Shown piece after piece: positions 1,218-31,196 of a stretch of 64,000 nt of DNA. Position numbers and translations under genes: made by a program. Below the pieces are notes generated by a model. That model saw only the letters and a list, made by a program, of their open reading frames with translations. It ran no database searches and was not told the DNA's origin. Position 1 is the first letter of the stretch; the number at the start of each line of letters is the position of its first letter. The DNA is from Candidatus Cloacimonadota bacterium. GTDB taxonomy: Bacteria; Cloacimonadota; Cloacimonadia; Cloacimonadales; JAIOQZ01. Location of the stretch: assembly GCA_021108395.1 (NCBI GenBank), contig JAIOQZ010000038.1, positions 3,415-67,414 of the forward strand, in the 5' to 3' direction.

Positions 1218-2366
1218 ATGAAGATCAAGAAATTCAGAGCGGCCACGATGCAACACGCCCTCGAACAAATCAAAAACGAGTTCGGAGACGACGCCATCAT
1301 TCTGAACACCAAGCAGGTCAAGGATGAAGACGCCCCCAAAGGCGAGCGCAAACAGGTCGAGGTGACGGCAGCCATCGATAAGCGGGAAACTGGGGAGTCG
1401 CTTGTCAAGCCGAGCTTTGGCAGCGCTTATGGCGAGGCCACGAGGCGCACCGAGGCGACAAGTATGGCCAATGTGCAGTTTACACACTTGCAGAAAGAGG
1501 TGGATTACATCAGCGAGCGTCTCGAACTGCTGCTGAACCACGTCAAGTATGAAAACCTGCCGCATATTCCCAAGCTCTTACAACAACGCGCTCGTACGCT
1601 CATCGGCACAGGGGTGCCTGCCAGCCTGGCCAACCAGATGATCGAGGAGATTCTGCTGGGTCTCAAGGGCGAGGATTTTTTGCAGGCCGAGCTCGTGGAC
1701 GACAAGCTGGTCGCCAAGATCAAGAATCGCTTCCAGATAACTGGTCCGGTGCGGTTCAATCATGGCCAGCCGACGGTGGTCGCCCTGGTGGGTCCCACCG
1801 GTGGCGGCAAGACCACCTCCGTGGCCAAGCTGGCCGCCATGTACGCCTATCAGTATGGCAAGAAGGTGGCGCTCGTTTCTACCGACAGCTATCGCATTGC
1901 CGCCATGGAGCAGCTCAAGGCCTTCGCCGACATCGCCAAGCTGCCATTTGCCGCAGCCTACGATCCATCCGAACTGGCCAAGCTCATGAAGGGCTATGCA
2001 AAGCACGACCTCATCCTGGTGGATACCGTTGGCATCAACCCACGCGACATGAAAAAGATGGTGAGCCTGAAGGAAACATTGCGCGTTTCACGGGCCGACG
2101 AGATTCACCTCGTGGTCAGCCTCACCACACGGGGTATCGACATCCGCGAGACATTGAAAAACTTCTCGATACTGGGCTACACCAGCCTTCTTTACACAAA
2201 GCTGGACGAAGCGGCGGCGTTTGGCGACATGCTCGACATCGCCGTTGGTTTCAATAAAGCAATAAGTTACATCGCGTTCGGGCAGGCCATTCCCGAAGAT
2301 ATCGCCCTGGCAGACCGTACTGAACTGGCGACGACGATTCTGAGAGGACGCTATGGAATTTCTTAA
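1218..2366 (+). CDS. flhF: Flagellar biosynthesis SRP-type GTPase FlhF
   Basis: G1 motif VALVGPTGGGKTTSVAKLAA, plus DTVGINPRD and an SRP54-like G domain. It lies between flhA and flhG. Confidence 0.9.
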   Translation: MKIKKFRAATMQHALEQIKNEFGDDAIILNTKQVKDEDAPKGERKQVEVTAAIDKRETGESLVKPSFGSAYGEATRRTEATSMANVQFTHLQKEVDYISERLELLLNHVKYENLPHIPKLLQQRARTLIGTGVPASLANQMIEEILLGLKGEDFLQAELVDDKLVAKIKNRFQITGPVRFNHGQPTVVALVGPTGGGKTTSVAKLAAMYAYQYGKKVALVSTDSYRIAAMEQLKAFADIAKLPFAAAYDPSELAKLMKGYAKHDLILVDTVGINPRDMKKMVSLKETLRVSRADEIHLVVSLTTRGIDIRETLKNFSILGYTSLLYTKLDEAAAFGDMLDIAVGFNKAISYIAFGQAIPEDIALADRTELATTILRGRYGIS

Positions 2367-3171
2367 CCAATCGAAGCAATTGCAGGACTTTACGCCAGGC
2401 AAGCCAGGCCGGAAGCTGGCAAAGCTCATCTCGATTACCAGCGGTAAGGGTGGCGTAGGAAAAAGTAATTTTATTCTAAACCTTGCCATCGCAATGTCGA
2501 TAAGGAACAAGAAGGTTCTTTTAATCGACGCTGACATGAATTTGTCCAACCTGGATATTCTCATCGGGGTGTATCCGCAATATACCCTGAAGAACCTGTT
2601 GGACGACATCGTGGATGTTGAGGATCTCCTGGTGGAGGGTCCCAAGGGCATTCGCATTCTGCCGGCCAATTCCGGCGACTATAAAGTCCAGCAGAACACG
2701 GCGAAGCTTCAGAAGGCGCTCATCCAGGCATACCGAGAGCTGCGGCCCGACTTCGATTATATCCTGATCGATACCGGCGCCGGCATCAGTGAGTACACAA
2801 CCGAGTTTGTGTACACCTCGGACAAGATCATCATCATCACGACGCCCGAGCCTACGGCGATAACCGATGCGTATGCGATGATCAAGATGTTGCACTTTCA
2901 CATGAAAGCGCCCGACATCTCGGTCGTTATAAATATGGTGCAGACTGTCGAAGAAGGCAAAACGATCTATGATAAAATCAGCCAGATCGTGCAGCACTTT
3001 CTGAACCGGCAGGTTCATTACATGGGCTGCATCCTGCATGACAGGAACCTGAAGGACGCCGTGCAGGAGCAGGTGCCGCTGATTATCAAGCACCCGCGCT
3101 CTGTGGCTTCGGCGGCCATCCACAACATGGCGATGACTTACTTGAAACAGGACATGAAAGACAACCAATGA
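2353..3171 (+). CDS. flhG: MinD/ParA-family ATPase FlhG (YlxH/FleN)
   Basis: Deviant Walker A SGKGGVGKSNF and Walker B ILIDTGAG. It overlaps the flhF stop by 14 nt and shows the canonical flhF-flhG synteny. Confidence 0.85.
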   Translation: MEFLNQSKQLQDFTPGKPGRKLAKLISITSGKGGVGKSNFILNLAIAMSIRNKKVLLIDADMNLSNLDILIGVYPQYTLKNLLDDIVDVEDLLVEGPKGIRILPANSGDYKVQQNTAKLQKALIQAYRELRPDFDYILIDTGAGISEYTTEFVYTSDKIIIITTPEPTAITDAYAMIKMLHFHMKAPDISVVINMVQTVEEGKTIYDKISQIVQHFLNRQVHYMGCILHDRNLKDAVQEQVPLIIKHPRSVASAAIHNMAMTYLKQDMKDNQ

Positions 3172-4294: not shown

Positions 4295-5170
4295 ATGAAA
4301 ACTTCCGACCTGCAACGAATCACCCGGCAGATTATCCAGTTGCCGGCCGTGCCCGTTATCGTGGTGCAACTTCTCGACCTCGTTGACGATCCGAAAACAT
4401 CCTCCGGCACGCTTGCCCAGCTGCTCTCCAGCGACCAGGCGCTCACCGCCAAGACACTCCGCCTGGCAAACTCCAGCTACTATGCTTTCGCTCAGCCCAT
4501 CAAGACGGTGCAGCTCGCCATATCGCTGCTTGGCTATCAGACGGTGGTGGGCCTGGCTCTCAGTCTCGCTTTCACCCGCAGTTTCGCCTGCGAACGCCAC
4601 GAGGACGAGTTCGATGTCATGGCGTTCTGGGAACATTCGCTAAGCGTTGCGGTCGCGGCACGCGGACTGGCCCGCGAGTTGAACGTCGAAGCTGCTCCCG
4701 CGCTGTTCACGATGGGCATTCTGCATGACATCGGCAAACTGATTATCCATGAATCTATGTATGAGCATTATCTGGCAATCGATATACGGGTTCGATTGCG
4801 CGGTGAACCATCGTATCGGGCAGAGCGAACAGTGATGGGCGCCAACCACGCTGAAATCGGCAGTTGGCTGTGCGAGAGCTGGCGCCTGCCTGCCGAGATA
4901 GGCTGCGCCGTCCGTTATCATCATGAGCCGTCGTCCGGTGAGGGTGAAGCGATCTGTATTATACATCTGGCCGATTTCATCTGCAATCGCCTGGGCTACA
5001 CATGGCCCGAGGCAAAACACGCTGAAAGTGAATTCGACCTCGTGTGCAAGCAGCGGCTTGGTTTGCAACTTGGTGACAATGGGGATGTTGACTGGCAGCA
5101 CTATGACGACTTGGTAGCGACGGAGATTGAAAAAGCTGCGGAGTTCATCAACATCGTAAAGGCTATCTGA
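4295..5170 (+). CDS. HDOD domain protein (putative signalling module)
   Basis: HDOD-like features: N-terminal LPAVPVIVVQLLDLVDDP, then GILHDIGKLII and GANHAEIGSWL. Confidence 0.8.
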   Translation: MKTSDLQRITRQIIQLPAVPVIVVQLLDLVDDPKTSSGTLAQLLSSDQALTAKTLRLANSSYYAFAQPIKTVQLAISLLGYQTVVGLALSLAFTRSFACERHEDEFDVMAFWEHSLSVAVAARGLARELNVEAAPALFTMGILHDIGKLIIHESMYEHYLAIDIRVRLRGEPSYRAERTVMGANHAEIGSWLCESWRLPAEIGCAVRYHHEPSSGEGEAICIIHLADFICNRLGYTWPEAKHAESEFDLVCKQRLGLQLGDNGDVDWQHYDDLVATEIEKAAEFINIVKAI

Positions 5171-5250
5171 GTCAGATGTATTCAGCAAAAAAAGCTTGCC
5201 GGATTTAGTCAGAGTTGATAAAATCATCGAAATAGATAACAGGGGTTAGC

Positions 5251-6735
5251 ATGAAACGCATAGCATTTTTTCTCATCCTGACGGGGCTTCTCGTTAGCTT
5301 GATGGCGCAGAGCCAACTCGAAGAACTCTACTACCGTGATTACGGCGAAATCGTGCGTCTGGTGCTTGTGTTCCAAAGCGAGCCAGACTGCCAGATTGAG
5401 CAGAACGGCGAGACCAGCCGGCTCGTGATTCGTTTGCGCAACACGACACGTTCGCGGGAAGTGCGCAACACCTATTCCCTCACATCGAGCCGCGTACTCG
5501 AATCGATCGATGTGACGGAAGACGGTGGCGCCCTTGTGCTCACTATTCACACCGACAAGCCATACACGCTCAAGCGCCCGACCCAGGGAATCGACCCAAA
5601 GAGAATCGTGCTCGATATATTTGGCGTGGCCCAGCCAACTACTCTCGCCGAGCACACCAGCTTTGCCCACTATTACAGCACGGTTGGTTACAGGAACAGC
5701 GCCCTGAAGGAATTCGAGTGGCTCGAAGCCAATGGCGACGGCGACACCGACTACCATTTCGACTGGGGCATGATGCTGTTGCGCCAGGGCAAAAAGCAGC
5801 AGGCGGCAACTCACTTTCGTGCAGTGCAGCCGAGCGCGAACCACTATCGCAAAGCGCAGGAAGAGATGGCCAAGCTGGGTGGTGTTCCCAGACCTGCCCC
5901 CGTTGCGCAACCAGAGCCGCAAGCGACGACGCAACCCGTAGCGAGTGAAACGCCAGAGCAGCCCGACGAAGCTCGAGGCGATGACGCGCAGAAATTCCTG
6001 CAAGCACAGGCTGCCGCCGCCAAAGCCATGGTCAGCGGTGAGCAAGCCGACTTTGAACAGGCTGCGACAATGCTACTGGAAGCTGGCGAAGACTCTGTGT
6101 TCAAACGTGAGGCGTATGTGACGCTGTACAGTCTCTATACATCGTGGGGGAAGCCAGAAAAAGCCAAACTTTACGCTGACGAGGCCGAGCTTCCCAAGAC
6201 TTCTGCAATGACCTGGACTCCGGGTGAGAACGGTGGAATCATGCGTCTTTGCATCCAGTTCTGGTTGGCCATATTGCTGGCGGCTCTCGTTGGGCTGATA
6301 GTGTTCTTTCTCATGCTCATTTACTATGGGTACAAGAAAGATAAAGATGAACCCGAATTCACGATGGCGGACATCAGGGAGCACAGCGATAATCTTGTCG
6401 AAACATACAACGAGTCGGTCGAAGAAGAAGATGAACTGGAAAAAGAAGAACCAGAGCCAGAGTCTGCCCCTGAAGCGGAAGAACCTGAGATTGAAGAGCC
6501 AGAAATAGAAGAACCTGAAATCGAATTGCCGGTAGAGGCGCCGGAACCGGAACGGGAAGAACTGCAAGAGCCGGAAGAACTTCCTGTCGATGATACTCCT
6601 GGTATCGGTGATCCGGAATACCAGAAGAAGATGATACTCAAGCTGAGCGCTGACGGCTGGGACACCGAGGCCATTGCCAAGGAGATGCAGATTTCCCAGC
6701 GCGAGGTTGAGTTCATCCTCAAGACTCAGTCGTAG
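5251..6735 (+). CDS. Hypothetical multi-domain protein: signal peptide, AMIN-like domain, TPR-like region, one TM helix, acidic EEPEI repeat, C-terminal HTH-like segment
   Basis: N-terminus MKRIAFFLILTGLLVSLMAQS; the RLVIRL...RIVLDIFG pattern; TM helix FWLAILLAALVGLIVFFLMLIYY; EEPEIEEPEIEEPEIE; tail LSADGWDTEAIAKEMQISQREVEFIL. Confidence 0.7.
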   Translation: MKRIAFFLILTGLLVSLMAQSQLEELYYRDYGEIVRLVLVFQSEPDCQIEQNGETSRLVIRLRNTTRSREVRNTYSLTSSRVLESIDVTEDGGALVLTIHTDKPYTLKRPTQGIDPKRIVLDIFGVAQPTTLAEHTSFAHYYSTVGYRNSALKEFEWLEANGDGDTDYHFDWGMMLLRQGKKQQAATHFRAVQPSANHYRKAQEEMAKLGGVPRPAPVAQPEPQATTQPVASETPEQPDEARGDDAQKFLQAQAAAAKAMVSGEQADFEQAATMLLEAGEDSVFKREAYVTLYSLYTSWGKPEKAKLYADEAELPKTSAMTWTPGENGGIMRLCIQFWLAILLAALVGLIVFFLMLIYYGYKKDKDEPEFTMADIREHSDNLVETYNESVEEEDELEKEEPEPESAPEAEEPEIEEPEIEEPEIELPVEAPEPEREELQEPEELPVDDTPGIGDPEYQKKMILKLSADGWDTEAIAKEMQISQREVEFILKTQS

Positions 6736-6740
6736 GGAAG

Positions 6741-7751
6741 ATGCCGTCCCTGGCTTCGCAATTGCAACAGGTCGTCGAGAGCGATGTGGCGGAGTTGCGT
6801 CGGCGATTGAAGTTGGGCGAAATCGTACCGGCGAAGGTGAGCCGCGTATTGAGTGAAGGGCACTATGCCATCACTGTTCGCGGCGAGACCGTACATGCGC
6901 AGTCGCACCTTGCGCTTAACGAAGGTGAGCTTTTCGTCGTTGTCGAGAGCTTGCGCCCCAAGATTCGGCTGCGGCTCGTGCCGGTACAATCCAGCCGCTC
7001 TGCCGAGGCGATGATTCGCCTGGCGCTCGAACACGGCCTTCCCCTCGACCCTCAAACGCAGCAGGTGCTGCTGGCGCTTATCGAGCACGGCTCGATGCCC
7101 CCCGATATAGAGGCCTTTGTTGGCGGCTGCCATGAGCTGTCGGGGCTGCTGCCGCATGGCTCGCAGGTGAGTTGGGAGCTGCTGCTGGCACTAGCCACTT
7201 TGCCCGGTGGGGAAGGGCCACCTGCCCTGGATGTGCTGCTCGAACTGTTCTCGATGCGTGACACGCTGCTGCCGGAGCCATTCACTCTCCCCGTACCAGA
7301 TGAGGACGCCATGCGCTATGCCTGGCTGCTGCTGCGTCTCGACGGGGTGGATGACGCCTTTCGTCTCGCTGTCGCCCCCTCACCCCTACGCGGGCGACTC
7401 GAACGCTGGCGCTCGCTGCTGGGCGCTCTCAACGCCGTCATGGAAGGTGTGCAGCTTCAGGCCTGGCTGCTGCCGGAAAACGGCCGCCTGCGACTGGCGC
7501 TCGCCGAACTTCACAGCAGCGGCGGGGTTGACTACTGCCGCCTGTGGGTGCGCACCGACGTTTTCAACGACATCCGCGTGCAGCTTCAGTGGACCACCGA
7601 CACCTCGCGGGCAACACTTGGCTTTGACAACTCGGTGGCCGCCCGCGACTTCGGCCAACTGCGCGACAGCCTGAGACAGGAAGTCGCCGCCACCCTGCCG
7701 GGCTGCGGACTGCACATCGAGGTGGACCACCCCTTGGGAGGGCGACCGTGA
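6741..7751 (+). CDS. Hypothetical protein of the flagellar cluster
   Basis: A long ORF with GC-rich codon usage matching its neighbours, starting 5 nt after the upstream stop. I recognise no family. Confidence 0.6.
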   Translation: MPSLASQLQQVVESDVAELRRRLKLGEIVPAKVSRVLSEGHYAITVRGETVHAQSHLALNEGELFVVVESLRPKIRLRLVPVQSSRSAEAMIRLALEHGLPLDPQTQQVLLALIEHGSMPPDIEAFVGGCHELSGLLPHGSQVSWELLLALATLPGGEGPPALDVLLELFSMRDTLLPEPFTLPVPDEDAMRYAWLLLRLDGVDDAFRLAVAPSPLRGRLERWRSLLGALNAVMEGVQLQAWLLPENGRLRLALAELHSSGGVDYCRLWVRTDVFNDIRVQLQWTTDTSRATLGFDNSVAARDFGQLRDSLRQEVAATLPGCGLHIEVDHPLGGRP

Positions 7752-7918
7752 AGAAAGCAACCCGCGAACAGCTTACCCGCATCGCCGCGCAGGAACGAGT
7801 TGACAGCCAAACGCTCGAACGCATGTTGAAGCATCGGCCAGGCCCGCCGCCGGGTGTGTTTCTCGCTACGGCGCGACTGCTGGCCATTATTCACCAGAGG
7901 GAAGACACATACCGATGA
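7748..7918 (+). CDS. Possible translationally coupled micro-ORF (56 aa, GTG start)
   Basis: It has a GTGA overlap with the upstream stop and an ATGA overlap with the downstream start. Translation VKKATREQLTRIAAQERVDSQTLERMLKHRPGPPPGVFLATARLLAIIHQREDTYR. It is absent from the ORF track, and the call rests on context only. Confidence 0.3.
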   Translation: MKKATREQLTRIAAQERVDSQTLERMLKHRPGPPPGVFLATARLLAIIHQREDTYR

Positions 7919-8724
7919 CTGAGATCGATTTCATCACCAGGGCTACGCGGCTGATGGGGGAATTCTCCTACGCCGAGCGCGAGCGCCATTACGAGCGCCT
8001 GTTCGACCTTCTACAGGAGGTGGCGCCTTTCCAGGACGCCGCCATCTTCCTGCTGGACGAGCGGAAGCGGAAGATCGAGCTGGAGTCCAGCCGCGGCCGG
8101 CCCGTTGACCTCGTGCACGTCGTCGAGTTCGAGATGGGCATGGGGTTCTCGGCGTGGGTGGCCAGCGAGCGCCGCATCGTGCTGCTGGACAACCTAAAAG
8201 GCCGCCAGGCGGGTGACATGGGCAGTTTTCTGTCGGTGCCGCTGTTGGTGGGCGACGATCTGGTGGGCGTGGTCAACTTCGGCCATGCGGAGCAGGGCGC
8301 GTTCACCCAGCCGCAGGCCGAGCGCGTGCAGGTGGTCGCCTCGCTGCTGGCGGGCATACTGGCCAAGAACCTGCTCATAGCGCGTTTGCAGCGCCAGAAC
8401 GAGAAAATCCGGCGCATGAACCGCAAGCTCAAGGAAGCGCAGCAGAAGCTGGTGGAGGCCGAGAAGGGCGCCGCGGTGTCCGCGACGGTGGTGAGCCTGA
8501 ACCACGAGATAAACAACCCGCTACAGATTATCTCCGGCAACCTGCAACTGGCGCGGCAGAGCAGCGATAACGAGGAAGTGAAGGCCAAGCTGGCGGTGGC
8601 GGAGGAGCAGCTCGAGCGCGTAGCGAAGGTGCTCAGAAAGCTCCGCGAGGTGCAGCAACCGCTGTTTGCAGAGTACATCCCGGGGGATGAGGAGAAGATG
8701 ATAGAGCTGGGGGAGGGGGAGTAG
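7915..8724 (+). CDS. GAF domain protein with a HisKA-like (DHp) helix but no ATPase domain
   Basis: GAF-like N-terminal half, a coiled coil, then an H-box-like LNHEINNPLQIISGNLQLA. The protein ends about 70 aa later with no N/G boxes. Confidence 0.75.
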   Translation: MTEIDFITRATRLMGEFSYAERERHYERLFDLLQEVAPFQDAAIFLLDERKRKIELESSRGRPVDLVHVVEFEMGMGFSAWVASERRIVLLDNLKGRQAGDMGSFLSVPLLVGDDLVGVVNFGHAEQGAFTQPQAERVQVVASLLAGILAKNLLIARLQRQNEKIRRMNRKLKEAQQKLVEAEKGAAVSATVVSLNHEINNPLQIISGNLQLARQSSDNEEVKAKLAVAEEQLERVAKVLRKLREVQQPLFAEYIPGDEEKMIELGEGE

Positions 8725-8750
8725 AGTTCTCTTTGTATAAAATACAATGG

Positions 8751-10769
8751 TTAACTTTTCTTTTTCCTTAGAAGTTTATTTAGGTCAGTAAATATCCTTT
8801 CAAAATTGTCTAGAGTATTATCAGATATGGTTTTTTCTAAGTCTTCTATATTTTCTTGAAAATAACGTGCAGGCCTATAATGATTAAATGTGATGCCTTT
8901 TGGGGGGGTCTGCTTTAAGTAATCCTCGATGCGTTTCAACACACGAGGATGTTTGCTTTTCAAATCTATTTGCTTGATAGTCGTGCCGAATTCACCATTT
9001 ACTAAGGAAAGATAGAAATCGATATCGAACATGTCTTCAATATCTGCTGAAGGTCGATTCAGATAGTCACCAAACGTAAGCACGCGACTTTTTGTTAGAA
9101 GTTTTTTCTTATACAGATTCTCGATTGACTGCCTATCTTCAGGTTTGACATCAACAAGTACTGCGATTTTTAAGTCTTTCTGTGAGCCCAAAAGAGAGAC
9201 AAAAGTCTGCACTTTGTCCGCACCACCAACAGGAGTAATTGTCCATTTGGCACTTAATCCAGTTCGATTCGATCTCTCAAGACTACTTGTGATGCATCGA
9301 AGATAGATCAAATCAGATGGACCTTCAACGATTAGACAATTAGGTCCTATGAACAAAGATTGCGTTATACTGTATCCCATTGCAGCCTGCAAAGGGAAAA
9401 TGGTGTCATCATCTGTTTCGAGTACATCTTTAGTAACTTTTGTTGTTCCATCCTTATCCTCATACACAGCTCGTACATTCTCGAAGTTGTTAACATCAAC
9501 AAGAAATGGGGAGTGTGTAGAATACATGGTTTGATTAGATGCGGATAGTTTTTTGAAAAATTCAATAAGTTTAGCTTGTGCAGTACCATGTAAATGTAAT
9601 CCTGGCTCATCAAGCAATAAGATACTGTCTTTGTGTGCTCCTTCTGCTTCAACTAAGAAGACAAGATAAAAGGAAAAGAAATACTGCATACCATAACTTC
9701 TTTGGTCCAGTTCGATCTCACTAGGATCTAAATCATCTGATACCCAAATTCTTAAATAATCACCATCAGCTTGATAGCGAAACTTATGTTTCCTTTGATC
9801 CCACCAATCAGAAAACTTACGAGTCATTGAATTTGATGCTGAGGAGAAATGAATAGCTCGTTCATCAATATATCTTCTGGTTTTTTCTTCATCAATCCTT
9901 TGACCGTGATTATGAATTCCAAGATTCGCAAGAGTTTTAATATCTAAGCCTACATGTTGAAACATGCACATGGTAATTCTTTTATTCGGTGATGGTTGAT
10001 TCAAAAAGGATGGCAGGTGAATGGCACTATCTAAGACGTTATACTTATCGAAATATATGAATTGAGGAAGCATTTCTTCAATATGACTTAACGCTATTTT
10101 GTAGTCTTCAATTTCCTTTTTTCTCTCAGTGTATGGTGTAAGAATCTCCATTATTGATTGTAACACATCCTTCTGCCATTCTTCATTAGCCCTTTGAAGA
10201 AGCTTTTGTTGTATTTGGTCTACTATTTCTAAAATGTTGTCATTGTTGACTGTTTGCTTTATACTGTTTAGGCTATCAGACAAATTCTGTTTTATATCTC
10301 CGAGTTCTTCACCTTTTCCATCAGGTGCTGTTAGATTGTTAACACTATCAACTATTTCATCGATAAATTCTAAAATTTCTTTCTTCTTAATATATCTAAC
10401 ATCTGGTTGAGGATAAAAAGCAGTGCTATATTTTGTAGAATAATAACGTGTGATTTCAACGTGATCAACTTTTGACAAGAGAGATGAGAGTGCTGTGAGT
10501 TTATCAACCTCAGACTCATTTAGGCTAAAACGACAACTCGATACTGGCCAAGCCCATTTCTCATATTCATCTGTATATCTTTTTCTTGGAAACTCCTTAA
10601 GGCCATCGTATTTCTCTTTGTCTGATGGATTGAACTTTGATAAACCTCTGAACACAGCCGATTTTCCTGCCTCATTTTTGCCCACAAAAGCAGTTAAATC
10701 TCCAACATCAATCCAGCCTGTATCATGTACTTTTTTGTAATTTTGCACTCGGAAAGCAGTCAGTCTCAT
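8751..10769 (-). CDS. Fused ABC-type (AAA_15/21-like) ATPase and C-terminal Toprim-like nuclease; OLD-family / single-chain PARIS-like candidate defence protein
   Basis: Walker A GKNEAGKS, signature-like QRSYGMQYF, Walker B ILLLDEPGLHLH, H-loop STHSPF. The Toprim-like part has LIVEGPSDLIYL, PVGGADK and VLVDVKPED. Start chosen at ATG 10769, which follows GGAGGAA. Codon usage is AT-rich. Confidence 0.8.
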   Translation of the reverse strand: MRLTAFRVQNYKKVHDTGWIDVGDLTAFVGKNEAGKSAVFRGLSKFNPSDKEKYDGLKEFPRKRYTDEYEKWAWPVSSCRFSLNESEVDKLTALSSLLSKVDHVEITRYYSTKYSTAFYPQPDVRYIKKKEILEFIDEIVDSVNNLTAPDGKGEELGDIKQNLSDSLNSIKQTVNNDNILEIVDQIQQKLLQRANEEWQKDVLQSIMEILTPYTERKKEIEDYKIALSHIEEMLPQFIYFDKYNVLDSAIHLPSFLNQPSPNKRITMCMFQHVGLDIKTLANLGIHNHGQRIDEEKTRRYIDERAIHFSSASNSMTRKFSDWWDQRKHKFRYQADGDYLRIWVSDDLDPSEIELDQRSYGMQYFFSFYLVFLVEAEGAHKDSILLLDEPGLHLHGTAQAKLIEFFKKLSASNQTMYSTHSPFLVDVNNFENVRAVYEDKDGTTKVTKDVLETDDDTIFPLQAAMGYSITQSLFIGPNCLIVEGPSDLIYLRCITSSLERSNRTGLSAKWTITPVGGADKVQTFVSLLGSQKDLKIAVLVDVKPEDRQSIENLYKKKLLTKSRVLTFGDYLNRPSADIEDMFDIDFYLSLVNGEFGTTIKQIDLKSKHPRVLKRIEDYLKQTPPKGITFNHYRPARYFQENIEDLEKTISDNTLDNFERIFTDLNKLLRKKKS

Positions 10770-10837
10770 TTGTTCCTCCATAACTATCAATTAAAGGCTT
10801 TTCAATATTTGTATTCAGAACAGTTATTATGTCAATC

Positions 10838-10864
10838 AAAAAAATCACTGTGAAAGAAAGTGAT
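10838..10864 (-). terminator. Rho-independent terminator downstream of nrdG
   Basis: On the minus strand, ATCACT-N9-AGTGAT is followed by a T7 run, 12 nt after the nrdG stop. Confidence 0.6.
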
Positions 10865-10875
10865 AGAAAAGCTCC

Positions 10876-11562
10876 TCACCTCACCCCAACACTCACCCCT
10901 TCTTTCTTCATCATCTCCACCGCTTCCTCCACCCCCGTGCGCGGGTGCAGGCGGAGCTGTTCGAGGTCTTCGAGCGTGTTGTCGGGGCGGCAGCGCTGGA
11001 GCGTAAAGCGGCGGCAACCGGCAATCTCCTCCTGTATGGCCAGCACGTCGGCGGGCTCGAGCAGCAGGTCGAACCACGTCGTGCGCAGCTCGTGGTCAAT
11101 GCCGGTGTCGCGCAGCAGCTTCACGCTGCGGCGGATGGCTTCGGTGTCCACGCGCATTCGCACCATTGCCCGGTACTTCGCCAGCGGCGCCTTGTAGTCC
11201 ATGGCTATGTAGTCCACCAGTCGCTCGTGGATGAGCAGCGCCAGCATGTCGGGATTGGTGCCGTTGGTGTCCAGCTTCACGCGGTAGCCCATCGCCTTGA
11301 GCCGGCGGCAGAAGCTGGGGAGGTCGTCGTGCAGGGTGGGCTCACCCCCGCTGATGCAGACGCCTTCGAGCAGTCCCCGCCGCGAAGCGAGGAAGTCGAG
11401 CACCTCGTCCTCCGGTATGGGCGGCTCGAAGCGGTGGGCATCGACGAGTTCGGGGTTGTGGCAGTATGGACAGCGGAAGTTGCAGCCCTGGGTGAAGACC
11501 GTCGCCGCCAGGTGGTTGTCGTAGTCGGCCATGGAGAAGCGTTCGAGTCCTCCGATGCGCAT
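10876..11562 (-). CDS. nrdG: Anaerobic ribonucleotide reductase activating protein (radical SAM)
   Basis: CNFRCPYCHNPELV cluster motif and GGEPTL. Start set at MRIGGLERFS (ATG 11562), preceded by GAGGGGGGAG. The longer track ORF would overlap nrdD. Confidence 0.9.
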   Translation of the reverse strand: MRIGGLERFSMADYDNHLAATVFTQGCNFRCPYCHNPELVDAHRFEPPIPEDEVLDFLASRRGLLEGVCISGGEPTLHDDLPSFCRRLKAMGYRVKLDTNGTNPDMLALLIHERLVDYIAMDYKAPLAKYRAMVRMRVDTEAIRRSVKLLRDTGIDHELRTTWFDLLLEPADVLAIQEEIAGCRRFTLQRCRPDNTLEDLEQLRLHPRTGVEEAVEMMKKEGVSVGVR

Positions 11563-11576
11563 GGTCTCCCCCCTCG

Positions 11577-13676
11577 CTATTTCACTTCGGCAATCTTGAA
11601 CGTCTTGCGCAGGTCGAACTCTGCCTGCTTGCCCTCGTTCCACTGCGAAACCGGCCGCAGATAGCCCACCACGCGTGAATACACCTCGCAGGTGATGCCG
11701 CATTCGGGGCAGGTGCGATGCTCGCCGCCGAGATAGCCGTGCGTGGGGCAAACTGAGAACGTGGGCGTGAACGTGAAGTAGGGCAGGTGATAGTTGTCGC
11801 AGATGGTTTTCACCAGTTTCTTGACAGTGCCATAGTGGTGCAGGCGTTCGCCGCCGAATATGTGCAGCACGGTGCCGCCGGTGTACTTCGTCTGAATCTC
11901 GTCCTGCTTGTCGAGCGCCTCGAAAACGTCGCCGGTGTAGTTGACGGGCAACTGGGTGGAGTTGGTGTAGAACGGCTTGGCGCCCTTACGGAAGGCGGAG
12001 TCGTTGGCCACGATGATGTCCGAGAAACGCTCGGTGTCGAGCTTGGCGAGGCGATAGCTTGTGCCCTCGGCCGGGGTTGCTTCGAGGTTGTAGTTGTTGC
12101 CGGTCTCCTCCTGGAACTCGACGAGCTTGCTCCGCATGAACACCATGACGCGGTTGGTGAAAAAACGGCCGATGTCAGAGCCGATATCGACGCCGTAGAG
12201 GTTGAGGCAGGCCTCGTTCATGCCCAGCAGGCCGATGGTGGAGAAGTGGTTCTTCCAATACTGGTCGAAGCGTTCTCGAACATTCTGCAAATAGAACTTG
12301 GTGTAGGGGTACAGTCCCTTATCAGTGAATTGTTCGAGAATCTTGCGCTTGATTTCGAGGCTGCGTTTGGCGAGGTCCATGTGCCAGCCGAGACGCTCGA
12401 TGAACTCGTCCTCGTTGCCCGACAGATAGGCCAGGCGCGGCATGTTCATCGTCACCACACCGATGGAGCCGGTGAGCGGGTTAGCGCCGAAGAGGCCGCC
12501 GCCACGGGCCTCGAGCTTGCGGGTGTCGAGCCGCAACCGGCAGCACATCGAACGGGCGTCCTCGGGACTAAGCTCGCTGTTGACGAAGTTCGAGAAGTAG
12601 GGGATGCCGTACTTGGCCGTGGCCTCCCACAGGTGATCGAGCACGGGGTTGTCCCAGTCGAAGTCTTTAGTGATGTTATAGGTGGGAATGGGGAAGGTGA
12701 AAACGCGGCCTTTGGCGTCGCCTTCGCTCATTACCTCGAGGAACGCCTCGTTGATCATGTTCATTTCGGTCTGGAACTCTTTGTAGGTCTTTTCCTGCGG
12801 CTCTCCGCCGATGATGGTCGGCTGGTCGGCGTACATGCGCGGCACTTCGAGGTCCATGGTGATGTTTGTGAACGGCGTCTGGAAGCCAACACGGGTGGGC
12901 ACGTTGATGTTGAACACGAACTCCTGTAGCGCCTGCTTCACCTCGGCATAGTTCATGCCGTCGTAGTGAACGAACGGCGCCAGTAGCGTATCGAAGCTGG
13001 AGAACGCCTGCGCCCCGGCCGCCTCGCCCTGCAATGTGTAGAAGAAGTTCACTATCTGGCCAAGAATAGAACGGAAATGCCTGGCGGGTTTACTCTCGAT
13101 TTTGCCGCGAGCGCCCTTGAAACCGGTGCGCAGCAGGTCCATCAAATCCCAGCCGACGCAATAGACGGATATTTGGCCGAGGTCGTGGATGTGGAACTCG
13201 CCGTTCGAGTGGGCGTCGCGTATCTCGATGGGATACACCTTGTTCAGCCAATAGACCTTGCTCACCTCAGAGGCGATGTAGTTGTTCAGCCCCTGTAGCG
13301 AATAGGCCATGTTGCTGTTCTCGTTCACCTGCCAGTCAAGCCGTTCGAGGTATTGGTCGATGAGGTTGACATTGGCGCGGGAGACAAGCTCGCGCATCTT
13401 GGCGCGCTGGTCTCGATAGAGGATATAGGATTTGGCGGTGCGCTTGTAGGGCGAGGCCAGCAGCACGTCTTCGACCAGGTCCTGCACCGCCTCGACGGTG
13501 GGTATCTGGTCGTGGATGGTTTGCAGGGCGAGGTTGAGAACCCGCACTGTGAGCCGCTTGGCCATGTCATAGCCGAACTCGTCGGTAACCTGGCCGGCCT
13601 TGAGGATGGCCGCGGTAATTTTCTGGTCATCAAAATCAACAACTGTGTTATTCCGTTTCCGGATCTCTTTGAACAT
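11577..13676 (-). CDS. nrdD: Anaerobic ribonucleoside-triphosphate reductase, class III
   Basis: N-terminal ATP-cone (RKRNNTVVDFDDQKITAAI), a conserved NrdD core, a C-terminal CPxHG...CPECG zinc site and the glycyl-radical motif SRVVGY. Confidence 0.95.
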   Translation of the reverse strand: MFKEIRKRNNTVVDFDDQKITAAILKAGQVTDEFGYDMAKRLTVRVLNLALQTIHDQIPTVEAVQDLVEDVLLASPYKRTAKSYILYRDQRAKMRELVSRANVNLIDQYLERLDWQVNENSNMAYSLQGLNNYIASEVSKVYWLNKVYPIEIRDAHSNGEFHIHDLGQISVYCVGWDLMDLLRTGFKGARGKIESKPARHFRSILGQIVNFFYTLQGEAAGAQAFSSFDTLLAPFVHYDGMNYAEVKQALQEFVFNINVPTRVGFQTPFTNITMDLEVPRMYADQPTIIGGEPQEKTYKEFQTEMNMINEAFLEVMSEGDAKGRVFTFPIPTYNITKDFDWDNPVLDHLWEATAKYGIPYFSNFVNSELSPEDARSMCCRLRLDTRKLEARGGGLFGANPLTGSIGVVTMNMPRLAYLSGNEDEFIERLGWHMDLAKRSLEIKRKILEQFTDKGLYPYTKFYLQNVRERFDQYWKNHFSTIGLLGMNEACLNLYGVDIGSDIGRFFTNRVMVFMRSKLVEFQEETGNNYNLEATPAEGTSYRLAKLDTERFSDIIVANDSAFRKGAKPFYTNSTQLPVNYTGDVFEALDKQDEIQTKYTGGTVLHIFGGERLHHYGTVKKLVKTICDNYHLPYFTFTPTFSVCPTHGYLGGEHRTCPECGITCEVYSRVVGYLRPVSQWNEGKQAEFDLRKTFKIAEVK

Positions 13677-13738
13677 AGCAAACCCCTAAAGCAGTATTAT
13701 ATGTATAACTATTTTAATCGTAGGTGATTAACCACTGC

Positions 13739-13768
13739 ATTGTTCAAATACGGAACTGATTGAACAAT
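13739..13768 (-). promoter_or_regulatory. Perfect 9-bp inverted repeat in the nrdD leader (candidate operator or RNA hairpin)
   Basis: ATTGTTCAA-N12-TTGAACAAT, 63-92 nt upstream of the nrdD start. A TTGACA hexamer (minus strand) lies near 13806-13811. Confidence 0.3.
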
Positions 13769-14082
13769 TAAGTTATCCTTTATCTGAGAGTTAATTAAGA
13801 ATCTGTCAAGCCGGAAATTTTCTTCGCTGTTCAGGGTGACAGGTGAATCCGCTTGAAAAGCCTCTTCACCTGTCTGTAAAAAATTGCGTCAGCCTCAACG
13901 GTATTTTATGTCTGGATATGACCATCATTAGGCACGAAAAATGCCCCTCGCGGATGTAGTGGCTATCTGTGTGTGGACAGGCAAGATAGCAATTTGGATG
14001 AGCGCAGCGGCTGCGAAAAGGTCTCCGCCGCCTTCGGGCAGCCACGCTGAAGCCGCTGATAGTGCGCCGCTGGCGTTACACG

Positions 14083-28588: not shown

Positions 28589-28695
28589 CGCTGCGGGAGA
28601 ATGGGGGGAGGGAGGGGAGTAAGGGAGATGATAAAAATCTCTGAAGCTTAGAATTCAGCCATAAGACATTTACTATTCCGTTTTGAAAAATGTTC

Positions 28696-28740
28696 TTGAC
28701 AGGAGAAATTGCAATTGCAAGTTCGATTTAGTTTTGGAGG
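28696..28740 (+). promoter_or_regulatory. Candidate promoter/operator of the AT-rich two-gene island
   Basis: TTGACA at 28696-28701; the perfect 12-bp palindrome TTGCAATTGCAA at 28709-28720; a TAGTTTTG element; then GGAGG 9 nt before ATG 28750. Confidence 0.3.
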
Positions 28741-28749
28741 ATTACCCTA

Positions 28750-30903
28750 ATGAGTATAAGAAACAAGAAAGCGAATCAAGCAACGTTGCGTTCCTACCAG
28801 ACAAAAATCAAATCACCAATTTGGGAAGCCTATAGTAATGCATTCGAGGGAATGTTCAAGGATCTACAAAACAATAATCGACTTGATCTTTCTCCATTAT
28901 CACATGAGCGGTCAAATAATGGTTTCGAGAGAAATTTTTCTTGGGATTGGTATGTGCCTCATACAGAAGCCACAATCAGTTTGAGGAAAGGGCATTCGTC
29001 CCATCATGAGGATGATTTAAAGCGTTGGACTAATTCAGAGGAGAGCTTTTTCGATATTCTTTTCGAAAAAAATACTAGATTAGTTGATGTGATTGGATAC
29101 ACTGGATTAGGAAAATCAACATTTCTGCACTATTTCTTTCTTAAATATCTTCCTGACAAAGTTGATAGTGAATCTGGTGTCGAGGAAAATTCAATCGTAG
29201 ATTTAAATAAACTGGCAGTAGTAAATATTCCGTTAATCTTTACGTCAGTCGAGGCAATTATGGGGGAATGGAATAGTGAAGTGAATAATTTCCTCTGGAC
29301 CCGTTTCAGTGAATTGTCTACAAAAGTGTTCTGGAAGAGTCTATTGCGATCAAATTTATACTTGCATCATGATTTTGAATTTGAAGTAGTAAATGATGAA
29401 TTAAAGGTAAGGCCACCAACAGATCCCAATTTAGTAGATTACTACCAAGATAGTGAAGAATTGGTTAATAGCATTGATAATAGAAGGAATACTAAAAACA
29501 GTTTTAAAAAGTGGTACAGAGATCTTTCGACTTGGAGAAGTACAGAGTATGATATCGGTTATGACATGAATCTACAGATAATTAGAATGCTCTCGAAATA
29601 TTTCGGTTATACATTTCTACTGATTATTGATAATATCGATCAAGTACATAAAATGCAACAAGATCGAATATTGGAAATAATCCAATTAAAAATGAGATTA
29701 TACCAAGACTACAAAAACGTCAAATTAATTATTGCGGTTAGAGACAGTTTCTATGAGCCTGTACTCTCTAATACATATGTTGCGTCTTACGGGAGAAATC
29801 GAAAACCGTTTCACTTACCAGCTATGAATTTGAGAATTGTTCTTGAAATACGGAAAGAAAGATTATTTGACCCATTAAAAGGAAATTGCTCGCGGATGTC
29901 AATAGTGAATAATACGGAAGTTGAGGTAAGCAATGTAGATAATTTTTTGGAAGCACTCTTCATGTTTTTTGATGATGCGGCTGACAACTATCACGAATTG
30001 TATCAACTAGCAAATTACAATATTCGCAGAATGCTTAAAATAGTGCAATATTACATTGAATCTCCTCATATGAGTTTGCCTCTAATACATGACATTTCAA
30101 GACTATCAATGACTTGCCCTCCTAATCGCACTGAAACAAAACAAATAGTACATAAACTTTTGTCATTCGAACGATTAGTAGATGTACTGATTCGTCATTC
30201 AAATTATTTAGTTGACATTAAATCAGATTCTCTAATGCCAAATTTATTTAACTCAGGTAGTGCTGAACATTTTTCATCTACTCTAACACGACTTTTCACT
30301 ATTTGGATTGTAAATAGGGAATCTTCTGTCTCGGTCGATGAAGTTATTGCGAATTTGGAATCCTTCGGTCACGGAAAGGCAGCTATAGAAAGAGAAATCA
30401 ACAAATTATTGGAAATGCAGTTGATTTTTTCAAATATGGGAAACGATATCGCAAATAATCCGAAGCGCAGAAATCAGATGTTAGAAACCAGAGATCTTCC
30501 CTGTGGGAGATATATTATAAATCATGTAATTGGTAGTCTTTACTATATCCAAAGATATGCATATATTACTCCTATGCGATCGGATTTATTGGAAGATGTC
30601 TATCTACCAGAATCTTCATCTGAAAAAATTGATTTCAAGAAGAGAATGATGGGAGCAAGTGCATTATATAAACAACTAGAATCAGATTTCATAAATCAGT
30701 ATGAGTTTGTTGCTGGGTATCAGAAAGAAAACCCACAATGTAGGGTATTGAATAAATTTAATTACTACGGATTTTTCCAGATAATTAAACAAATTCATAG
30801 TCAAATTGAGTTTACTTGTGCTGATTTGCAACTGCTATTCAAAGAAGATAAACTCGACTCAGCACAGCTTTTTCCAAATCATAGAATATCTAATTTCCCA
30901 TAG
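28750..30903 (+). CDS. AAA+/STAND-like P-loop NTPase with a predicted winged-helix region; function unknown (candidate conflict-system NTPase)
   Basis: Walker A VIGYTGLGKSTFL; Walker B FLLIIDNIDQ; sensor-1-like KLIIAVRDS; lid-like ANYNIRRMLKIV; wHTH-like VSVDEVIANLESFGHGKAAIEREINKLLEMQLI. Composition is about 27-30% G+C in sampled lines. Confidence 0.8.
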   Translation: MSIRNKKANQATLRSYQTKIKSPIWEAYSNAFEGMFKDLQNNNRLDLSPLSHERSNNGFERNFSWDWYVPHTEATISLRKGHSSHHEDDLKRWTNSEESFFDILFEKNTRLVDVIGYTGLGKSTFLHYFFLKYLPDKVDSESGVEENSIVDLNKLAVVNIPLIFTSVEAIMGEWNSEVNNFLWTRFSELSTKVFWKSLLRSNLYLHHDFEFEVVNDELKVRPPTDPNLVDYYQDSEELVNSIDNRRNTKNSFKKWYRDLSTWRSTEYDIGYDMNLQIIRMLSKYFGYTFLLIIDNIDQVHKMQQDRILEIIQLKMRLYQDYKNVKLIIAVRDSFYEPVLSNTYVASYGRNRKPFHLPAMNLRIVLEIRKERLFDPLKGNCSRMSIVNNTEVEVSNVDNFLEALFMFFDDAADNYHELYQLANYNIRRMLKIVQYYIESPHMSLPLIHDISRLSMTCPPNRTETKQIVHKLLSFERLVDVLIRHSNYLVDIKSDSLMPNLFNSGSAEHFSSTLTRLFTIWIVNRESSVSVDEVIANLESFGHGKAAIEREINKLLEMQLIFSNMGNDIANNPKRRNQMLETRDLPCGRYIINHVIGSLYYIQRYAYITPMRSDLLEDVYLPESSSEKIDFKKRMMGASALYKQLESDFINQYEFVAGYQKENPQCRVLNKFNYYGFFQIIKQIHSQIEFTCADLQLLFKEDKLDSAQLFPNHRISNFP

Positions 30904-30911
30904 GAAGTTAT

Positions 30912-31196
30912 ATGATGAAGATAGATCAATTTATTCAGAAAACACTGTTGTCAATTCAGGTTGGGGTAGATGGCGCGAATGATTCTTCGAATGATGTTAA
31001 GTTTTTTTTGAAACAGTGGAATAGTGCCGGTACAGATTCTGGTATCCACTTTGATATTGCAATAAGTGTGGATAAAGAATCAAGTGCAGAAGGTACTGTT
31101 GGTGTTATACATGTAATATCTGCGAAACTAAAAGGACGTTTGGCAAAAAGAAACAAACAGATTTCGCGGATTCAGTTCGTGGTTCATGTAAAATAA
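30912..31196 (+). CDS. Small 94-aa protein, beta-rich, reminiscent of trypco2-type small partner proteins
   Basis: It starts 8 nt after the NTPase stop and has the same AT-rich composition. The pattern is an N-terminal helix, then IHFDIAISVDKESSAEGTVGVIHVISAKLKGRLAKRNKQISRIQFVVHV. The family assignment is from memory only. Confidence 0.6.
   Translation: MMKIDQFIQKTLLSIQVGVDGANDSSNDVKFFLKQWNSAGTDSGIHFDIAISVDKESSAEGTVGVIHVISAKLKGRLAKRNKQISRIQFVVHVK

Follow-up and report, generated by a model that had tools for sequence, protein, structure and literature searches.

A one-gene, low-GC island between a GAF/HisKA gene and nrdG of a Cloacimonadota bacterium, encoding a predicted OLD-family ATPase-nuclease of apparently hybrid make-up

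What is a lone gene of low guanine-plus-cytosine (GC) content doing between the end of a flagellar gene block and nrdG, in DNA that to both sides is GC-rich, and what sort of protein does it encode? The question is raised by a stretch of 64,000 nucleotides, here 'the window', from a Candidatus Cloacimonadota bacterium (GenBank assembly GCA_021108395.1, contig JAIOQZ010000038.1, positions 3,415 to 67,414 of the forward strand). Cloacimonadota are known mainly from metagenome-assembled genomes, and we know of no experimental study of their defence systems. OLD-family ATPase-nucleases, to which the product of this gene is assigned below, form the basis of Gabija, PARIS, and some retrons, as well as of P2 Old, with stand-alone members being poorly understood. 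The reading that we favour, and to which we would give a probability of roughly 0.7, is that the gene is an acquired, one-gene cargo of an insertion hotspot, and that it encodes a stand-alone hybrid OLD enzyme, i.e., one with an ATPase head of one lineage (A), a nuclease tail of another (B), and a remodelled active site, presumably serving in defence.

The island and its surroundings, in window coordinates, are as follows.

8725..10875, no strand assigned: low-GC cargo segment, taking up all of the space from the convergent GAF/HisKA gene to nrdG (2.15 kb)
8751..10769, minus strand: predicted OLD-family ABC-ATPase/Toprim nuclease gene, 672 amino acids (aa) plus stop, identical to NCBI MCD4829330.1
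7915..8724, plus strand: left core flank, GAF + HisKA protein gene (Pfam GAF_2 and HisKA), last of the flagellar/chemotaxis block
10876..11562, minus strand: right core flank, nrdG (anaerobic ribonucleotide reductase activase), with a Radical_SAM match
11577-13676, upstream of nrdG: nrdD

The segment stands out by composition, its GC being 0.356 (0.31-0.40 across the island) versus 0.60-0.68 on both sides. Third-position GC is 0.295 in the OLD gene versus 0.87 in the GAF gene, 0.87 in nrdG, and 0.82 in nrdD. The island consists of a single open reading frame (ORF), with no further ORF in the segment and with neither a GajB-like helicase, a reverse transcriptase, nor a separate AriB adjoining the OLD gene. 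An earlier note, made from the letters of this DNA, had described the same arrangement, that is, a minimal, minus-strand, one-gene island of lower GC than its neighbours, lying between the end of the flagellar cluster and nrdG, without GajB partner or separate AriB, and ending 26 bp from the convergent stop. All of this was borne out, with stop codons at 8722-8724 (GAF gene) and 8751-8753 (OLD gene). A scan of 8000-11600 against Rfam gave no match above noise and a tRNA scan of the island gave none, which together rule out both a retron ncRNA and tRNA-linked integration. No longer direct repeat flanking the island was found.

Composition is joined by what relatives carry at the same place. Upstream of the GAF gene the flagellar block encodes FlhA, FlhF, an FlhG-type ParA/MinD protein, FliA, and an HDOD protein, a gene order that is kept in Cloacimonadota relatives. 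GTDB species representatives have GAF orthologs that are 40-49% identical, with that upstream synteny kept and with neither nrdGD nor an OLD gene downstream, and these are too distant for an empty-site comparison. Closer relatives, as reached by exact-protein look-ups of GAF homologs that are 66-74% identical, are more informative. One of them, locus L173 (GCA_030154545.1, JASEYN010010818.1), has the same GAF|nrdG junction, with its GAF protein 66%, its NrdG 75%, and its NrdD 89% identical, and its spacer is occupied by a different, 1.3-kb low-GC cargo (GC 0.31-0.34; 6988-8296), namely the genes of a SocA_Panacea-domain protein (176 aa) and, on the opposite strand and partly overlapping it, of a 154-aa protein, a pair that looks like a toxin-antitoxin module. 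Indeed, in pairwise alignment of the window with L173, homology breaks off precisely with the GAF stop codon and is taken up again precisely at that of nrdG.

With different cargo at the same junction, the OLD gene therefore is not a syntenic core gene, whereas it is core orthologs, syntenic and of native composition in all relatives, that the earlier note had said would refute it. In locus L175, with a GAF protein 67% identical, a 292-aa gene (1749-2627, minus strand, no Pfam hit on record) follows the GAF gene directly, within a stretch of lower GC, and would be a third type of cargo at the post-GAF position. The GAF|nrdG spacer is, that is, a recurrent landing site, or hotspot, for small accessory modules in Cloacimonadota, and the island in the window is a foreign, horizontally acquired, one-gene cargo, as composition along with the different cargo in L173 indicate and as the earlier note had supposed. 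The three closest relatives of the protein itself are found on contigs with a GC of 0.37-0.46, matching that of the gene and thus fitting a lower-GC donor.

The encoded protein, for which the NCBI record reads 'AAA family ATPase [Candidatus Cloacimonetes bacterium]', divides as below. Invariance of the ATPase motif residues is as judged in a 43-sequence alignment built on the window protein.

9408..10769, minus strand: ABC ATPase head, residues 1-454 (AAA_15/AAA_21), resembling lineage A (~55% identity)
10659-10682, minus strand: Walker A, G30-S37, with K36 invariant
9684-9698, minus strand: signature-like SYGMQ, residues 358-362, with S-x-G-x-Q invariant
9606-9611, minus strand: Walker B, D387-E388, invariant
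9513-9515, minus strand: H-loop, H419, invariant
9810..10397, minus strand: long helical insertion, ~residues 125-320 (AF2 model helices 129-232 and 294-320)
9345..9407, minus strand: apparent recombination joint, residues ~455-475, the FPLQAAMGY...LFIGPN linker, at which the closer lineage changes from A to B
9024..9347, minus strand: predicted Toprim domain, residues ~475-582 (PF20469; alignments to Ts OLD and P2 Old)
8754..9023, minus strand: C-terminal helical domain, residues 583-672 (AF2 model pLDDT 88; fold matches 6njx and 6nk8)

All of the ~100 invariant columns of that alignment are kept, and the gene is intact. All six of the motifs to which the earlier note had appealed, i.e., GKNEAGKS, LLLDEPGLHLH, STHSPF, VEGPSDLIYL, GGADK, and VDVKPED, are found in the protein. 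Pfam matches are to AAA_15 at 8.9e-25 (residues 8-431) and to AAA_21 at 1.1e-15. The OLD-like_TOPRIM family, PF20469, is sub-threshold on the full protein, attains the gathering score, with 23.2 bits, when only the C-terminal domain is scanned, and is matched in 23 of 23 relatives (best 1.5e-8). A profile of the 43 homologs has one strong match among Protein Data Bank (PDB) sequences, that to the Thermus scotoductus OLD protein (Ts OLD, 6p74; 1.6e-14), with a profile of the C-terminal region yielding nothing significant in the same sequences. Taken by itself, the C-terminal domain is picked up only by PF20469 and by comparison of folds. With hhalign, P2 Old is matched across the Toprim domain at 97.3% probability (E 1.9e-11), with P2 residues E398, D453, and D455 aligning with E482, D540, and K542.

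Predicted structure points the same way. Ts OLD is the top Foldseek match of the full-length AF2 model (pLDDT 82), followed by GajA and the Retron-Eco8 OLD, with fold matches extending to SMC and Rad50 heads. For the separate model of residues 455-672 (pLDDT 88) the best matches are the C-terminal regions of Xcc OLD (6njx) and Bp OLD (6nk8; E 2e-4, TM ~0.5), with GajA and generic Toprim folds ranking after these. The C-terminal region thus is modelled as an OLD-type Toprim fold, the lack of which is what the earlier note had said should count against it, and the protein accordingly is classed, on sequence and model, as an OLD-family ABC-ATPase fused in one chain to a predicted Toprim nuclease, not of the PARIS type. 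The helical insertion of the head is likely a coiled-coil/dimerisation and sensing module, dimerisation by analogy with the dimerisation domain of Ts OLD (PMC7049728) and sensing by conjecture.

The head and the tail of this protein appear to have separate histories. Lineage A consists of relatives as obtained with the full-length query and lineage B of proteins as obtained by searching with the C-terminal region. With the C-terminal 218 residues as query, an exhaustive HMMER search returned 1,303 cluster representatives (50% identity), 196 of them at E<=1e-30, and these lineage-B proteins mostly are 620-690 aa long and 36-60% identical to the C-terminal region of the window protein. The ATPase of the window protein is 23-30% identical to lineage B versus 53-57% to lineage A, and its C-terminal region is 28-30% identical to lineage A. 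Mean identities, with W being the window-type subclade, are these.

N-terminal domain: W to A 0.55, W to B 0.27, A to B 0.27
C-terminal domain: W to A 0.27, W to B 0.45, A to B 0.26

Identity in sliding windows switches from lineage A to lineage B at residues ~455-475, i.e., at a conserved FPLQ..GY linker. When alignment columns were bootstrapped, lineage A was the closer of the two to the window protein in each of 200 replicates for the N domain and in none of 200 for the C domain, with the latter falling inside the diversity of lineage B. An A head combined with a B tail is confined to the window protein and the three relatives nearest to it; the metagenome and plasmid loci that were classified, 55 in number, comprise 33 of type B, 13 of type A, 9 unassigned, and 0 hybrid. 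The window protein would thus be, as judged from these alignments, a chimera of a lineage-A ATPase and a lineage-B Toprim tail, joined at the interdomain linker.

The tail brings with it an unusual active site. In characterised OLD enzymes metal A is held by Ts E377, D431, and D433, equivalent to P2 E398, D453, and D455, while metal B is held by Ts D381, S478, and E480, equivalent to P2 E402, D541, and E543; the basic catalytic residue is Ts R487, P2 K550, or Bp K562, and the second Asp of the DxD motif is needed for killing by P2 OLD, as seen with D455A (PMC7049728). The positions of most concern in the window protein are the following.

9324-9326, minus strand: E482, Toprim acidic residue
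9150-9152, minus strand: D540, Toprim acidic residue, first Asp of DxD
9144-9146, minus strand: Lys542, in place of the second DxD Asp
8880-8882, minus strand: His630, in a conserved F-N-H-Y-R-P-A motif

Residues E482, D486, D540, D576, E578, and D579 are kept in the window protein and are 97-100% conserved in 88 lineage-B sequences. The second DxD position, Lys in the window protein, is variable in lineage B (A, S, D, Q, H, and others) and reads D-G-D in lineage A. Position 630 is His in 84 of 88 lineage-B-type sequences and Lys in at least 90% of the 43-sequence alignment, in which lineage A predominates. There is no Lys or Arg at +7 from the metal-B Glu in the window protein, and position 630 lies at +52 from that Glu, with Bp E508 to K562 being +54; from this spacing and conservation position 630 would be the equivalent of Bp K562. 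The loss of the second DxD Asp, together with His630 in place of Lys, therefore suggests that both the metal-A site and the catalytic basic residue have been remodelled in lineage B.

Where does such a protein belong among OLD enzymes? The earlier note had offered a stand-alone, Class 1 OLD as one of two possibilities, and this proved correct in part. As with Class 1 enzymes (P2 Old, Ts OLD, the Vibrio cholerae OLD or Vc OLD, and E. coli YbjD), here is a single gene without obligate partner, and none recurs beside its relatives. As noted, Ts OLD is its best match in both PDB sequence and full-length fold, and the window protein retains the Glu along with the first Asp and the D-x-E motif for metal B. 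The cut-off in length for Class 1, however, is 500-600 aa (PMC12392090), whereas the window protein has 672, including in the model a helical domain (583-665), Class-2-like, that follows the Toprim and is absent in Ts OLD. The second DxD Asp is missing, the basic residue is not at +7 (as Ts R487 or P2 K550 are) with a conserved residue at +52 instead, His in lineage B and Lys in lineage A, and the SxGxQ signature-like motif is invariant, whereas the signature in Class 1 is described as degenerate (PMC7049728).

Class 2, i.e., Bp OLD (6NK8), Xcc OLD (6NJX), and Bc GajA (8SM3), is resembled in that the Toprim plus helical domain fits the Xcc and Bp C-terminal regions and in that the +52 spacing to position 630 is like the +54 of Bp. 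Gabija, however, would call for a UvrD/PcrA-like GajB, and the neighbours here are the GAF/HisKA gene and nrdG, with no helicase family in the island or recurring beside relatives; GajA hidden Markov models (HMMs) give only partial matches, and GajA chains are matched at 0.056 by the 43-homolog profile. The Class 3, retron I-B context likewise is not seen, there being no adjoining reverse transcriptase ORF and, in 8000-11600, no Rfam match. Eleven uncharacterised OLD clades have been recognised in a recent phylogeny (PMC12796447), and lineages A and B probably fall among these, although none of the Rhodothermus and plasmid accessions, as sought for placement in clades U1-U11, is found in the supplementary files of that work.

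Similar in design is HEC-04, an ABC ATPase-Toprim fusion that is embedded in Hma systems and validated in defence, for which Walker A and the Toprim E/D/D residues are needed (bioRxiv 10.1101/2024.01.29.577857). Like the window protein, HEC-04, which was found through 'guilt by embedding', is a single-chain ABC ATPase-Toprim. Unlike the window protein it is shorter and keeps the canonical triad (E319, D375, D377), and no HEC-04 model is among the best 25 PADLOC matches of the window protein, nor among the matches listed for scanned relatives.

How might the enzyme act? Ts OLD is a dimer with two-metal cleavage (PMC7049728), Vc OLD is a DNA nickase that stands alone and protects against phage (PMC12392090), P2 OLD is activated by ATP and cuts tRNA anticodon stems (PMC12445682), and AriB is a tRNase (PMC12409363). 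By extension, the window protein would oligomerise through its helical insertion, with the ATPase serving as sensor and switch via ATP binding or hydrolysis. Upon some phage-derived cue the Toprim site would then cut nucleic acid, whether by DNA nicking, as with Vc OLD and Ts OLD, or by tRNA cleavage, as with P2 OLD and AriB, and infected cell or phage would be stopped, i.e., the infection aborted. OLD enzymes do function in phage defence, single-gene cases including Vc OLD, P2 Old, and YbjD (PMC12392090; PMC12445682; PMC13261556), and the enzyme of the window most likely would be, that is, an anti-phage suicide enzyme.

A number of points weigh against this reading. The defence role of lineages A and B would come to them by homology, and at least one class within the OLD family, that of Cran1, does not serve in defence (PMC12796447). 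No PADLOC 2.0 model matches the window protein end to end. The missing second DxD Asp could mean that nuclease activity is reduced or altered. As the lineage-B set was picked by similarity to the query's own C-terminal domain, the W to B identity of 0.45 is inflated relative to B to B, and incongruence between the domains thus appears more secure than does the nesting of the tail within lineage B. Lastly, tblastn found no hsdM, hsdS, or hsdR in the 64-kb window, and if lineage-A heads need a restriction-modification (RM) partner then the window protein may be orphaned.

This last point is the strongest of the alternatives, though in our judgement still an unlikely one. On that account the head works only in conjunction with an RM complex, as does PrrC in EcoprrI, and the gene in the window is inert or decaying. 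The idea that a lineage-A head is a PrrC-like guard of restriction is a hypothesis that stems from the frequent nesting of lineage-A genes within type I RM operons (L002, L004, L088, L090, L095, and others). In Rhodothermus marinus and other genomes, ~47%-identical relatives lie between hsdM and hsdS of such operons, in frames that overlap or nearly abut, and these operons hold Kiwa, Abi_C, and M78/DUF4411 genes as well. In R. marinus locus L002, for example, 4439-14055 holds in order hsdM, the lineage-A OLD-like gene, hsdS, KwaA, KwaB, an M78 peptidase, DUF4411, Abi_C, and hsdR, tightly packed on one strand, and this type I RM operon is a nested defence island. All three of the closest relatives of the window protein (64-68% identical) furthermore adjoin a DNA methyltransferase, one locus also having a type II restriction enzyme.

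PrrC and RloC themselves, anticodon nucleases of type I RM operons, are comparable to lineage-A relatives in combining an ABC-type ATPase with a C-terminal nuclease, with guard-of-restriction logic suggested by this and by the nesting of both within hsdM-hsdS-hsdR operons. They are unlike the window protein in that its nuclease is a Toprim rather than a HEPN-like ACNase, in that the window copy lies outside of any RM locus, and in that no homology is seen beyond the ABC core. With no RM neighbour, it follows that the window protein either acts alone or is orphaned, and several findings speak for the former. The ORF and its invariant residues are intact, and the gene has its own Shine-Dalgarno sequence and promoter-like site. 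An RM gene within 3.5 kb is lacking from about half of the lineage-A loci examined and from the majority of lineage-B loci. The window query has matches in more than 5,600 proteins, and in 62 related loci no partner gene recurs, HsdS being found 10 times, HsdM 8 times, and other DNA methyltransferases 6 times, so that an hsdM, hsdS, or other methyltransferase gene is nearby in only about one quarter; a universal RM partner was rejected on these numbers. The search for RM genes covered the 64-kb window, with RM elsewhere in the genome possible.

The other possibility raised by the earlier note, that of a fused, one-chain PARIS (AriA-AriB, Class 4 OLD), which would sense anti-restriction proteins such as Ocr and cleave tRNA, is not upheld and we regard it as very improbable. 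Fused ariAB genes do exist (PMC12392090; PMC12409363), PARIS too couples an ABC ATPase sensor to a Toprim effector, the fused AriAB model is of similar overall length, and the RM linkage of relatives would suit a sensor of anti-restriction. The PADLOC 'AriA' model also is the top match of the window protein, at 86.8 bits and over positions 1-373 of 373. That model, however, behaves like Pfam AAA_15 and matches every OLD-like relative too, and it is 'Old' that is the best of the PADLOC models reaching into the nuclease. The AriAB model (PDLC02981) scores 57.5 bits, and this over positions 319-485 of its 694 only, and the C-terminal domain alone gives zero matches to PADLOC. DUF4435 (PF14491), the Toprim type of AriB, is not matched at E<=1 by the window protein, nor by any one of 23 relatives, no AriB chain is among the fold matches of the C-terminal model, and AriA structures are reached by the 43-homolog profile at ~1e-3, on the ABC signature stretch only, versus 1.6e-14 for Ts OLD.

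Nor is it at all probable that the gene instead is a selfish one, that is, an addiction or plasmid-stabilisation nuclease, though the toxin-antitoxin-like pair in the same hotspot of a relative would be in keeping with this. Homologs occur on IncF plasmids of Enterobacteriaceae and on other plasmids, some of them conjugative, with a Gemmobacter plasmid copy lying beside a type I RM system and with one homolog locus adjoining HigBA and a transposase. No antitoxin-like partner, however, is present in the island or recurs across loci, and the single-chain OLD proteins characterised to date act in phage interference. On the Enterobacter hormaechei IncF plasmid NZ_CP099320.1, a 161-aa hypothetical gene (5505-5990) is found 10 nt upstream of the lineage-B homolog. 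Phages rarely carry homologs, there being a single full-length match among 50,697 phage records and another four within IMG/VR, and a prophage origin is unsupported.

Least credible of all is a role other than defence, say in DNA repair or cell-cycle control as is reported of the archaeal OLD-family Cran1 (PMC12796447), for although the ABC head resembles Rad50, SMC, and RecF and Cran1 shows housekeeping roles to be possible in the OLD family, Cran1-type genes are vertical and syntenic, whereas the OLD gene has a third-position GC of 0.30 in a genome at ~0.85, is absent from relatives that carry other cargo at the same site, and has its own relatives in RM operons, defence islands, and plasmids.

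An acquired, stand-alone, hybrid OLD enzyme thus remains our preferred reading, and new here are the head/tail recombinant, the single-Asp/His Toprim site of a large lineage, and the GAF|nrdG hotspot. The natural domain swap marks the linker between ATPase and Toprim as a modular joint, useful for engineering and for sorting the sensing half from the killing half. The lineage-B variant of Toprim is widespread (at least 196 clusters at 50% identity, E<=1e-30), and this without a residue that is essential in P2 OLD. The locus also offers a compact, single-gene OLD member from outside of end-to-end PADLOC 2.0 coverage. It is possible, though we are doubtful, that lineage B represents a mechanistically distinct branch, i.e., one with a single Asp, a conserved His, and a different chemistry or substrate, and that OLD genes swap sensor heads and effector tails at the FPLQ..GY hinge. 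Should such swapping be true, then the window holds a natural recombinant of an often RM-embedded head with a lineage-B effector. Unless the altered active site has a new activity, the value of the locus otherwise is incremental, with no new principle.

Lesser features of the island concern its expression and ends.

10775-10779, minus strand: Shine-Dalgarno GGAGG, 5 nt before the OLD-gene ATG
10826..10854, minus strand: promoter-like site inside the cargo, TTCACA-17-CATAAT with TG; a match to a consensus that may not be that of the host phylum
8733..8747, no strand assigned: perfect AT-rich hairpin TTGTAT-AAA-ATACAA with a 6-bp stem, in the 26-bp gap between the convergent stops

The mechanical ORF of the OLD gene extends over 8751..10790 of the minus strand, for 679 aa from a TTG. 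The true start almost certainly is the ATG at 10767-10769, giving 672 aa, because of the GGAGG 5 nt upstream, the equality with MCD4829330.1, and a Met1 that is invariant in 43 homologs. The mechanical ORF of nrdG (10876-11751, 291 aa from TTG) similarly is too long in that it overlaps the end of nrdD, and the true start likely is the Met at 11562 (228 aa), 14 nt past the nrdD stop, which agrees with the 229-aa NrdG of L173.

The hairpin takes up most of the gap between the convergent stops, is touched by repeat pairs I20 and I21, and may be a weak bidirectional terminator. In L173 a GC-rich hairpin, GGGGCTTTGCCCC, follows the GAF gene, and this is absent from the window. The earlier note had pointed as well to a TTTGTAT at each edge of the island (8732 and 10808) while declining to call it an att site. 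Both copies are present and that caution was warranted: the motif has 8 copies in the window versus 6.3 expected by chance, and the left copy is part of the hairpin.

Two further observations concern accessory DNA nearby. Just upstream of fliA in the flagellar block, the relative to which L173 belongs carries an AbiEi/AbiEii pair (L172 1887-3388, L173 73-1574, L174 1261-2762), the insert having a GC of 0.44-0.49 in a genome at ~0.63, and the window is without an insert there. The window itself contains a second single-gene, AT-rich island at 28600-31000 (GC 0.33-0.39), with an ORF at 28750..30903 of the plus strand, just after the gene of a small MTS-family methyltransferase. Its 717-aa product, for which there was no Pfam match, no significant PADLOC match, and no PDB sequence match, has a P-loop, GYTGLGKST, as well as a Walker-B-like LLIIDNID, and may be the product of a further acquired defence gene, an NTPase of no recognised family.

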